A stretch of DNA of 64,000 nt from Gallionellaceae bacterium (GTDB taxonomy: Bacteria > Pseudomonadota > Gammaproteobacteria > Burkholderiales > Gallionellaceae). This document shows, piece after piece, positions 37,644 through 40,600 of the stretch. Under the pieces are notes generated by a model that did no database searches, had not been told where the DNA came from, and saw nothing but the letters and a program-made list of their open reading frames with translations. The DNA is taken from NCBI GenBank assembly GCA_041660815.1, contig JBAZVN010000013.1, positions 6,662 to 70,661 on the forward strand, in the 5' to 3' direction. How positions within the stretch are numbered: the first letter of the stretch is position 1; each line of letters begins with the position of its first letter. The position numbers and the translations under genes are program-made.

Positions 37644-40600
37644 ATGAAAATTACTCACAAATTCCTAAGTAGTTTGAGCGTTGTGCTAGCCGGCTTAATG
37701 ATCTCCTTACCCGAGGCTCAGGCGGCTATCGCGGGCTATGTGCAATTTGTGAATGGTAATGTGCAAATAACTTCGCCTGGAGCTGCCCCGCGTCAATTGA
37801 AAAAGAGGGAATCAATTAAGGAGGGTGACTCGATTTCTACAGCAGAAAAGTCTTCTGCCCAAATTAAAATGCAGGACGGTGGTTTTGTCGCCGTACGCCC
37901 CGGCACTGAGATGAAGTTTGACAAATTTGTGTTTACCGGTAAGGCGGACGGCACTGAACGCAGCTTCTTTACTCTCGCCAAAGGGGGATTTCGCGCCGTA
38001 ACCGGTTTGGTTGGCCGGGTTAACAAGCAGAACTATAAGATTTCAACACCTGCTGCAACCATCGGAATTCGCGGTACCGACCATGAATCTTTTGTGGTGC
38101 CAAGGGGCAGTAGAATGGGCAACCCCGGGGCTTATAGCAAGGTGAACGTGGGAGAAACAACGCTTACAACGAGTTTGGGCACGGTAAACGTTAAGCCAAA
38201 TCAGATGGGTTTTTCCAGCGGAATGGATGTTGTTCCAAAAATTGCTCCGATAGACACCTCAATATTTACGGTTGCCGCAGCGCCAAGCAAGACCATGAAA
38301 GAAGATAAGGAAGAAAAGTCCAAGCAAGCAGAAAGCGAAAAACAAGAGCAGCAAGCTGCCGCAAAAGAAGAGGCTAAGCAGGAAGAAAAGCAAGAAGCCA
38401 AGCAGGAAGCCAAGCAAGAAGCCAAGCAGGAAGCCAAGCAAGAAGAAAAGCAAGAAGCCAAGCAAGAAGCCAAGCAAGAAGCTAAACAAGAAGCTAAACA
38501 AGAAGCTAAACAAGAAGCTAAACAAGAAGCTAAACAAGAAGCTAAACAAGAAGCTAAACAAGAAGCTAAACAAGAAGCTAAACAAGAAGCTAAACCTGCT
38601 GCTCCTGCCCAGCAGCAAGCAAAGCAGGAGGGAAAACAAGATGCTGCGCCAGCAGCAGGCGGAGCACCTAAAGTTGCGGCAGCCCCAGCCCCCGCTCCGG
38701 CGCCTGAAGCTCCACCCACGATTCGGGTTGCCACGAAGGTTGATTCACCCACGATGGCGGCGGTAAATTCTCCTCCACCTGCAGCAACACCTGCCCCGGC
38801 ACCAACTCCAAAAGTTGAAACTACCCCCGTTAAAATGGCCGATCAATCGGGTAACAGCGTTAACTTAACCACCCAAGCGATTACAAACGAGAAGACCGGG
38901 TTGGCGACAACTGTTGAAAAGGTTGCGGTTCTGGTTAAGTCTGTAAGCGACTTAACCAACCCTGATGCCATTAATTCGGTGGTGAATCTGGCTGCCCAAA
39001 ATAAGGCACTCCCTACCCTTGCAGAGTGTACCTCCCCCTTGCAGCTTGGTTGCGGTGCAGTTTTACCATCAGTTCCAACTTGTAAAGCAAGTCCAAATAC
39101 AGCGGGTTGCGGTGTGGTTTATATCAGTGATGTTGCTGCCAATTTGGCGCCGGGCGGATCCAAATACGCAACAATTATTCCCGGTATTGCAGTTAATGTC
39201 ACCGATGCACCATCAGTCTCACAATTGTCCGCGATTGACTCTGCCAATGCTACGGGCGAGCTTAGCTTTACGGCGGTGAAAGATACAAAATCCATTCTTA
39301 CCGCCAATACCGCGGGGTATGTAACTGCGGGAAAAAATGTAACTGTGACTGATAACGCCACCCTTGCGGAACTGGCAAGTATCGCTGTGAAAAATTCTGG
39401 CGGTGTGCTTAGTGCTACTTCAATTACCGATACGGCAGCAGGATTGGCAGTGAGTCCTTTTGTGAAAGCTGGCGTGACAATTATTGTGGTTACCAATGCA
39501 GCTAAAATTTCCGAGCTGACCGCCATTGCCGGTAAAAGCAGTAGTGCATCAATCAGTTTTTCTGCACTGAGTGACACTGCAACAAATCTGGCAAATAGTA
39601 CCGGTAATTATTTGGCGTCCGCTCAGACCATCACCGTGACAGATGCAGCAAACTTAGCTCAGCTAACCGGTATTATTTCAAGAAATGCTTCGGCAACACT
39701 AAACTATACAAAAATTAGTGACACAGTTACCAACCTTACCGCAAACACTTCAAGCAATCTGCTGAGTGGAAAAACGGTTACGGTGACAGATTCTGCGACT
39801 CTGGCTCAATTAAGCACACTTGCGTCAGCTAATTCTGGCGCTACATTGCTTCCTACGGTTATTAGTGATACCGCAGCAAATTTGGCAACCAGCAGTTTTG
39901 TTGCTGGCAGTGTCAATGTATCGCTCACCGATACCTCGGTAACGCTCGCACAGCTGGCGGTTGTCGATGCAAAAACGACGGGGAGTCTGACCTATCAATC
40001 TATTAGCGATACCGTTGCCAAGTTGACTACCAACACAGGTGGCTACGTGGTGGCAGGTAAAAATGTTGTCGTGACGGATTCGGCAACTTTGGCACAACTT
40101 AACTCAATTGACTCGATGAACGGGGCGGCGGGCACTTTAACAGCCACCACGATTTCCGGAACTGCCGCTGAATTGATCGCGAGTCCTTATGTTAAAGCGG
40201 GCGTGAATTTAACAATTACCGATACACCAACATCAATCCAGATTTCGACCTTAAGCACTAAAATTGCGGGTGGCTCACTGACCTATGCATCCTCTTCGGC
40301 AATTAGCGGTACCGCCGCCGCCTTGGCATCCGGTAATACCGTTGTGCCGGGTATTGCGGTTAATGTGACTGATGCCGCTACTATTGCTGAATTGACGGCA
40401 ATTGATACGAAAAATGGCAGCGCTGCAGTCAACTACTCAGCTTTGAAAGACACCGCTGCAAATCTGGCAGCCAATGCAGGAGCTTATGTTAAGGACGGTA
40501 AAAATGTCACCGTAACAGATGCTGCCACACTAGCTGAGCTTGCTTCAATCGATGCCCAAAACGTCAACGGTATGCTGTTTTACACGGCGCTGAGTGATAC

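Follow-up and report, generated by a model that had tools for sequence, protein, structure and literature searches.

Within a 64,000-nucleotide stretch of DNA from a Gallionellaceae bacterium (contig JBAZVN010000013.1 of assembly GCA_041660815.1, positions 6,662 to 70,661; hereafter the window), the open reading frame (ORF) at 37644..43295 encodes a giant protein of 1883 amino acids that joins an N-terminal unit resembling both FecR and the retention module of LapA to a C-terminus of the TbpB type. Directly upstream lies a gene for Slam, the translocon of the type XI secretion system (T11SS). We propose that the giant protein is a non-lipidated cargo of this adjacent Slam, with a periplasmic N-terminal module that tethers the passenger, and we put the probability of this reading at roughly 50%. 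Its parts are of unequal strength: assignment of the protein to T11SS cargo is very likely, and a role of the module as a periplasmic retention or tether element comes close to even odds without reaching them. The data show the domain identities, the adjacency to Slam, conservation across the family and the absence of a lipobox; Slam dependence, transport direction, topology and the roles of conserved motifs are what we infer. Coordinates are window positions on the forward strand unless stated otherwise.

The giant protein opens with a type I signal peptide, read from the sequence, that spans residues 1-27 (37644..37724; MKITHKFLSSLSVVLAGLMISLPEAQA followed by AIAG) and is predicted to be cleaved at AQA/A. 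It has no lipobox cysteine. The cleavage site A-x-A/A-x-AG is common to members of the protein family described below, and no lipobox was present in any family member examined. A preliminary description of this DNA had placed a cleavable signal peptide before a FecR domain, and that signal is indeed there. The same description had called the product of the neighbouring gene (36082..37581) an outer-membrane protein. By Pfam it is a Slam of 499 amino acids, with a DUF560/SlipAM barrel (PF04575, residues 210-496, E = 6.3e-14, 52.6 bits against a cut-off of 22) and a tetratricopeptide repeat (TPR) part matched by TPR_19 and TPR_16 at residues 120-184. The Slam gene stops 62 bp 5' of the giant ORF.

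At its other end the giant protein carries three paralogous modules of about 250 residues (40950..43292; approximate bounds 40950-41750, 41751-42575 and 42576-43292), which align pairwise at 25-33% identity. Pfam detected TbpB_B_D neither in the window protein nor in 10 long homologs, and a PF01298 match in the homolog P0122 sits in a module other than the one that aligns to the window protein; we therefore used structure prediction for the C-terminal lobe. AlphaFold2 modeled the last module as a TbpB-type handle plus beta-barrel lobe with a predicted local distance difference test score (pLDDT) of 85 and a predicted template modeling score (pTM) of 0.84. Top Foldseek matches of this lobe were TbpB of several species, the meningococcal TbpB C-lobe, fHbp, PmSLP and NHBA, with probabilities of up to 1.00, and all of these are known Slam substrates. 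Model and matches thus agree with the earlier claim of a TbpB-like C-terminus, and the pairwise identity suggests that the first two modules may be lobes of the same type. When PDB was searched by sequence, the C-terminal module and a profile of its homologs returned only His-tag and thrombin-site artefacts, and hhalign found no match between the C-terminal profile and an fHbp sequence. The protein ends in the strand VNGVAAFRE (43266..43292; family consensus [VI][NS]GVAAFHR-COOH), presumed to be the Slam recognition motif. About 25 of 33 complete long forms of the family end in YG....[VI][NS]GVAAFHR, and most others in close variants. At the sequence level, T11SS cargo are characterised by a Sec signal, by a DUF560 outer-membrane protein encoded alongside, and by a handle-barrel at the C-terminus. 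The giant protein has all three, hence its assignment to this class.

Residues 28-215 (37725..38288) make up a conserved, all-beta N-terminal module that AlphaFold2 and Foldseek assign to the FecR fold. A hidden Markov model search matched residues 62-147 (37827..38084) to Pfam FecR (PF04773), with E = 3.7e-8 and 34.2 bits for the whole protein (gathering cut-off 24) and E = 2e-9 and 38.2 bits for the isolated module. AlphaFold2 modeled residues 28-232 as all-beta with moderate confidence (pLDDT 66, pTM 0.51), the first 50 residues scoring 80-94. Searched with this pLDDT 66 model, Foldseek returned the putative anti-sigma factor 4m0n/4m0h (E = 3.3e-4, TM-score 0.51, probability 1.00) and PupR (6ovk_R; E = 4e-3, TM-score 0.48, probability 1.00). 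The FecR domain of the preliminary description, for which two peptides had been quoted, is therefore upheld by profile and by fold, and both peptides were found in the protein. A PDB sequence search with the module gave no real match, only His-tag and thrombin-site artefacts. Two segments of the module, IGIRGTDHE (38061-38087, residues 140-148) and PNQMGF (38196-38213, residues 185-190), are invariant or nearly so among 51 family members. FecR domains do not in general have the DHE triad, which is specific to this family and could be a metal site or an interface.

The first sub-domain of the module (residues 30-92, 37731..37919) resembles the plug of the LapA/MpIBP retention module, a domain termed RIN. 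Mature residues 3-65 match positions 3-65 of the 145-position NCBIfam profile NF033682 (retention_LapA) with E = 2.9e-6 and 27.5 bits. All 51 family members tested match this profile (best E = 4.9e-12), and short forms of the family do so in the same register. Foldseek aligns the sub-domain to PDB entry 5ix9, a 76-residue 'cell surface anchoring domain', over 62 columns with a root-mean-square deviation (rmsd) of 1.1 A, a target-normalised TM-score of 0.76, 24% identity and E = 9e-4. E. coli FecR, used as a control, left NF033682 unmatched even at E <= 10; thus, the retention-module-like sub-domain is not a generic FecR feature. The same control aligns to the profile of Lsa33, a leptospiral FecR-like lipoprotein, only from position 64 onward. 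We do not file the giant protein in the LapA family, because its score lies below the cut-off and the rest of the profile, including the LapG site region, is unmatched. An earlier suggestion held that the N-terminus was similar to the LapA module in concept but built from different parts. The likeness goes past the conceptual, given the in-register profile match in 51 of 51 members and the close fit to 5ix9, and the second half of the suggestion finds no support, with the first ~65 mature residues matching both NF033682 and 5ix9.

Database searches place the module in a large, apparently undescribed family of Slam partners in iron-oxidising Betaproteobacteria. The N-terminal 221 residues retrieve hundreds of relatives that are 50-65% identical, mostly about 275 residues long, and for the most part annotated only as 'FecR family protein'; homologs of the module overall reach 50-70% identity. 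With one genome per species scanned, at least 552 stretches encode a relative. Hosts are mostly Gallionellaceae, Sideroxydans, Ferrigenium and other Nitrosomonadales, with a few Rhodoferax and Comamonadaceae, and iron oxidisers predominate among them. When a library clustered at 50% identity was searched by profile, at least 1697 cluster representatives matched at E <= 1e-30; the position of the module was invariably N-terminal, and of the best 150 matches the majority measure 500-2800 residues. Two kinds of protein carry it. In long forms (550-2870 residues) the module is followed by a linker, then by a variable passenger and by modules like the C-terminal lobes of the window protein; short forms (272-301 residues) have a short tail after the module and no lobes.

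Gene context was surveyed in 78 fetched related loci by ORF calling and BLAST. Slam is the immediate upstream neighbour of 41 of 44 long forms and 34 of 36 short forms (75 of 80 cases overall), usually at a gap of 0-50 bp. In each of the first three contexts inspected, the module gene stood directly 3' of a TPR-SlipAM gene, and one contig held two such pairs in tandem. Furthermore, distances among modules co-vary with those among Slam barrels (Mantel r = 0.62; the highest of 999 permutations gave 0.14), and the module is the more conserved of the two (mean p-distance 0.39 versus 0.54). The preliminary description had called for a search for other proteins that combine FecR with a TbpB-like barrel, and had allowed that the fusion might be incidental. 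About 40 independent loci carry the combination, and module, linker, passenger and TbpB-like lobes recur in these; the fusion is therefore not incidental.

Module and passenger are separated by a spacer of two parts. The first is a Lys/Glu/Gln/Ala-rich linker of 115 residues (residues 216-330, 38289..38633) composed of 25% E, 23% K, 23% Q and 22% A. It contains neither Pro nor Gly up to residue 318 and, from this composition, is probably helical. Within it, a 12-bp tandem repeat of 19.3 copies (38364..38595; Tandem Repeats Finder score 296, 91% matches) encodes (EAKQ)n. The 76 residues reported earlier for this repeat are correct when the closing EAKP is counted, with 18 E[AE]KQ units at residues 243-314. 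The second part, rich in Pro and Ala (residues 331-412, 38634..38879; 26% A, 21% P), had been described as a stretch of about 80 residues; the length stands at 82, but the end lies some 50 nucleotides beyond position 38830, where it had been drawn. Both motifs that emerged from family comparison are held in this stretch: motif 1, IRVATKVD (residues 360-367, 38721..38744; consensus P[IV]R[EDS][ST]AVVD), and motif 2, SVNLTTQ (residues 405-411, 38856..38876; consensus G..[LV]N[LI]T[TN]QT). Motif 1 is found in long and short forms alike. The distance from motif 1 to motif 2 is constant at 44-51 residues in 24 long forms, and short forms stop a median of 38.5 residues past motif 1, just before motif 2, usually ending in VF.

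The segment between the module and motif 1 measures 12-169 residues in long forms and 7-38 in short forms, and spacer composition across the family ranges from K/E/Q-rich to G/S/T/A-rich. The (EAKQ)n repeat itself recurs only in a few close relatives, such as those of loci L014 and L006. Because length and composition vary in this manner, the EAKQ and Pro/Ala spacer is a variable tether and not a conserved spanning element; the conserved element is the unit from motif 1 to motif 2 inside the Pro/Ala stretch. A functional spacer that spans the periplasm as TolA or TonB does, as had been envisaged, is not borne out by such variation, and the resemblance to these proteins is compositional only. 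With 25.3 bits, the TolA profile TIGR02794 (tolA_full) fell short of its cut-off of 59.45, and the low-complexity EAKQ segment is matched by RNase E, BASP1 and a YSIRK lipase as well.

Current understanding of Slam has the substrate kept unfolded by Skp, its C-terminal specificity motif recognised, the chain passed through the channel, and the N-terminal lipid anchor handled last via a lateral gate (PMC9090332). Among TbpB-like cargo, lipidated proteins number 638 and soluble ones 7 (PMC12282271). RIN, the N-terminal domain of the Marinomonas primoryensis RTX adhesin, has been placed in the periplasm, where it is too large for TolC and is proposed to be a plug that retains the adhesin (PMC5550230). 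The LapA retention module, which is homologous to RIN, is genetically required for surface retention (10.1101/198937). On our reading, the giant protein would cross the inner membrane via Sec, and Slam would recognise the C-terminal TbpB-like lobe that ends in NGVAAFRE. The unfolded passenger, with its ~49-residue repeats and three handle-barrel lobes, would then be threaded outward with the C-terminus first. The 190-residue N-terminal module would have left Sec long before the C-terminus of the 1856-residue chain; it is predicted to fold in the periplasm, to be unable to follow the passenger, and to remain there. The giant protein would thereby be tethered to the cell, with the module replacing the lipid anchor of other TbpB-like cargo. 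The K/E/Q/A-rich and Pro/Ala-rich stretch would act as a flexible tether of no fixed length, and the unit formed by motif 1, about 45 residues and motif 2 is a candidate for the segment that lies inside the Slam barrel or contacts the Slam TPR domain.

A broader proposal takes in both forms of the family. DUF560 proteins of Gallionellales and Sideroxydans fall in cluster 2 of a published sequence similarity network (159 nodes, 79% of them environmental), and the window Slam may belong there too; published analysis of T11SS cargo covers clusters 1 and 3 only. Stand-alone short forms have neither passenger nor barrel, from which it follows that the module must serve Slam in some way by itself. 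We tentatively suggest, with less confidence than we give to retention in the giant protein itself, that a Slam branch, probably cluster 2, employs a Sec-exported, retention-module-related FecR-like domain as conserved partner, namely as a stopper in giant cargo, and as a plug, gate or primer where it stands alone at ~275 residues. The fused domain would be a periplasmic stopper for a giant protein threaded through or docked on Slam, and the stand-alone protein would plug, gate or prime the Slam through which a lipoprotein encoded nearby, with its His-rich tail, is exported. If true, T11SS cargo would be anchored without lipid by a domain that shares ancestry with the LapA plug.

Several observations weigh against retention as the function of the module. 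The N-terminal AlphaFold2 model is only moderate at pLDDT 66. The 27.5 bits obtained with NF033682 compare with a curated threshold of 50 for the whole model, and only positions 3-65 of 145 are aligned. Lsa33 (NF047849) and LipL45 (NF033165), FecR-like lipoproteins of Leptospira, also match the module. Hemophilin and HrpC, which are soluble T11SS cargo, are released whole, so an N-terminal domain is exportable in principle. Lastly, a pure retention role leaves unexplained the short forms that have no passenger or barrel. The short forms speak for an alternative in which this Slam subfamily has in the module a dedicated periplasmic partner, for example for TPR docking, gating or cargo delivery. 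The partner would work on its own in short-form loci, and in long forms it would be joined in cis to its cargo, with anchoring a by-product or absent. In keeping with such a partner, stand-alone forms of 272-301 residues lie 5-25 bp 3' of Slam in 34 of 36 short-form cases, a candidate cargo is encoded separately as a lipoprotein 5' of Slam in 19 of these 36, tandem paralogous pairs of Slam and module stay paired, and module and Slam barrel co-vary. TPR domains typically bind short peptides flanked by disorder, and motif 1 is a short conserved peptide between disordered stretches. However, characterised T11SS systems require the outer-membrane protein only (PMC9090332), long forms already bear a canonical C-terminal signal, and the plug-like appearance of the first domain of the module would go unexplained. 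We regard a partner role in place of retention as rather unlikely, at about one chance in four in our estimation.

Somewhat less probable still is export of the module along with the rest of the protein, as a conserved extracellular effector that binds a ligand, mineral or matrix, with short forms as minimal secreted cargo. The N-terminal part is the effector in known T11SS cargo (PMC12282271), the profile of Lsa33, named a surface adhesin by NCBI, matches the module with E = 3e-10, the invariant GIRGTDHE might form a metal or ligand site, and the hosts are mostly iron oxidisers. Against this, the module is the most conserved part and the passenger variable, the opposite of what is usual for surface effectors; the relatives with solved structures (FecR-type anti-sigma domains, PupR and RIN) belong to the periplasm; and in short forms there is no TbpB-type barrel that Slam could recognise. 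We reject an anti-sigma or cell-surface-signaling regulator fused to a surface protein as highly improbable. The Pfam FecR match and the likeness in fold to periplasmic domains of anti-sigma factors speak for it, but the module directly follows a cleavable signal peptide, with no cytoplasmic anti-sigma domain or transmembrane helix, it leaves the FecR equivalog NF007296 unmatched at E <= 10, and neither an extracytoplasmic function (ECF) sigma factor nor a TonB-dependent transducer was present among the neighbouring ORFs scanned. Even less credible, and likewise rejected, is a chimera created by assembly or gene calling, in which a short FecR gene and a separate giant gene were joined across the repeat. 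It is true that short-read contigs are broken or have odd ends there (L084, L001), yet ~40 independent contigs from metagenome-assembled genomes carry module to barrel in one ORF with differing linkers, and among the best 150 cluster representatives most have the module N-terminal in a protein of 500-2800 residues. Because it recurs in this many loci, we consider the fusion a conserved architecture and no artefact.

Two further candidates were set aside. For release of the LapG type, no conserved TAAG (the LapG dialanine site) follows the module, VAAAP at residues 210-214 is not conserved, and LapG and LapD genes were absent among the window ORFs scanned. N-terminal targeting of the kind seen in two-partner secretion is unneeded in long forms, because a canonical, conserved C-terminal signal exists in them.

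The passenger of the giant protein begins with four Cys (residues 462, 470, 480 and 489; 39027..39110) within 28 residues right after motif 2. Relatives at loci L035 and L040 have a two-Cys version (AAECT...NCAS). The cluster could be a disulfide loop at the passenger base, and is reminiscent of the 'cysteine hook' of CdrA (mentioned in 10.1101/198937). Next come about a dozen repeats of ~49 residues with the pattern V[TN]VTD.ATLAEL.SI...G.L....ISDTA.NL (residues 517-1052, 39192..40799), which have no Pfam match and are shared with only 3 related loci.

Among the related loci, 19 of 36 short-form cases have a gene for a lipoprotein of ~520 residues just 5' of Slam (L004:4964-6526 and 21 other loci). 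This lipoprotein carries an L[TA][AG]C-GGG lipobox, an IgGFc_binding domain (PF17517) and a C-terminal tail rich in His, Asp and Glu, for example HDHAHDDHGGEHDDDHDD. We regard it as a candidate for a lipidated Slam cargo of iron oxidisers that bears a metal-binding tail. Two tandem pairs of Slam and short FecR genes of distinct types occur at L004:6501-11548 and also in L050 and L067, one type of 275 residues ending in VF and the other of 298-331 residues with MRETxTMDK repeats ending in EQH. This tandem pairing is kept across genomes. A common chromosomal slot, seen in L004, L016 and many other loci, reads radC, in some cases the lipoprotein gene, Slam and the FecR-module gene, followed by purB and mnmA on the opposite strand. 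The slot is shared by many long-form and many short-form loci, which suggests that cargo type is exchanged at a fixed site. Short-read assemblies break in the (EAKQ)n or a (GDKQ)n repeat: Logan contig L084 stops at residue 258 of the giant protein, and the relative P0001 of L001 has an apparent length of 272 residues only because its contig ends 47 bp past an odd terminal sequence.

Neighbours scanned in the window comprise pan genes, NHL proteins, Slam and type IV pilus-like genes. A secreted protein of 1775 residues with C-terminal NHL repeats (43359-48686) is encoded 63 bp 3' of the giant ORF; it lacks both a FecR module and a TbpB-like lobe, and none of the 83 related loci has a counterpart. 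Two more large NHL-repeat proteins are encoded at 33215-35995 and, on the reverse strand, at 5078-7666. The former, 5' of Slam, also has fn3 domains and an AIA/Q signal peptide, with a counterpart in one related locus only. We considered the upstream NHL/fn3 protein and the downstream 1775-residue NHL protein as parts of the system and discarded both, as neither is conserved in related loci. Further downstream, 49143-57704 holds an MSHA or type IV pilus-like cluster that encodes a T2SSF platform protein, an MshEN-T2SSE ATPase, a secretin with an STN domain, and PilN-like and PilO-like proteins.

T11SS is known almost wholly from host-associated pathogens and symbionts, and we know of no described fate of its cargo other than lipid anchoring or release. 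Here, environmental iron-oxidising Betaproteobacteria pair Slam genes with a conserved N-terminal module, the first domain of which is related to the plug that keeps LapA-type adhesins in their outer-membrane pore. A T11SS cluster with no assigned cargo or partner thus gains a concrete candidate from the family. As a very likely T11SS cargo, the giant protein brings in an N-terminal module that is new and defines its family, together with a plausible new mode of anchoring. Should retention prove true, it would add a third fate for T11SS cargo and represent one anchoring device common to two unrelated secretion systems. Giant surface proteins and lipoproteins with His-rich tails could also matter for attachment to, or handling of, iron minerals by Gallionellaceae. 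Co-expression assays in E. coli exist for Slam1-TbpB and HrpB-HrpC.

Our literature search found no publication that ties FecR or retention modules to cargo of T11SS, Slam or DUF560 proteins, and two T11SS cargo papers do not name FecR as a cargo domain. In a T11SS supplement FecR appears only as a co-occurring regulatory domain beside sigma-70 domains, and it has served once in that literature as a filter for iron-uptake neighbours. Known T11SS cargo, such as TbpB, surface proteins of Sphingomonas and Psychrobacter, and Pls-like proteins, share with the giant protein the Sec signal, the adjacent TPR-DUF560 outer-membrane protein and the C-terminal handle-barrel (PMC12282271). Charged helical repeats (EEARKA in Pls-like proteins, EAKQ here) and Pro-rich repeats ahead of the lobes are further points of likeness; these repeats and multiple lobes were already known for T11SS cargo (PMC12282271). 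The giant protein differs in its size, the absence of a lipid anchor, its occurrence in environmental Betaproteobacteria, and a 190-residue FecR/retention-like N-terminus that is more conserved than the lobes.

The likeness to FecR and PupR anti-sigma proteins consists of a PF04773 match above threshold and a TM-score of ~0.5 over ~145 columns (6ovk, 4m0n). In contrast to these proteins, the giant protein is without an anti-sigma domain, transmembrane helix, or sigma or transducer partner, and its module has an additional retention-module-like first sub-domain that E. coli FecR lacks. Lsa33 and LipL45 are the best NCBIfam matches of the module; they span the first sub-domain as well as the FecR part and start near the mature N-terminus, but scores are far below the cut-off (~40 versus 420 bits), and both are spirochaete lipoproteins without a Slam context. 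Two-partner secretion (TpsA/TpsB) offers a purely conceptual parallel, in which a conserved N-terminal domain precedes a giant variable passenger and the gene adjoins that of an outer-membrane transporter with periplasmic repeat domains; there is no relation in sequence or fold. LapA-type adhesins are type I secretion substrates that lack a Sec signal, carry an RTX/T1SS signal at the C-terminus and use the LapBCE transporter, whereas the giant protein is Sec-dependent by its signal peptide, Slam-associated and TbpB-like at its C-terminus, with no match to RTX repeats. In addition, its beta-sandwich runs on into a larger FecR-type domain, the retention profile scores below its cut-off, and the TAAG site and LapG/LapD genes are missing as described above. 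Nonetheless, it shares with LapA and MpIBP about 65 residues in register, modeled as the same small beta-sandwich as 5ix9. In each case these residues open a giant surface protein of repetitive build, at its extreme N-terminus, and lead into a flexible linker.

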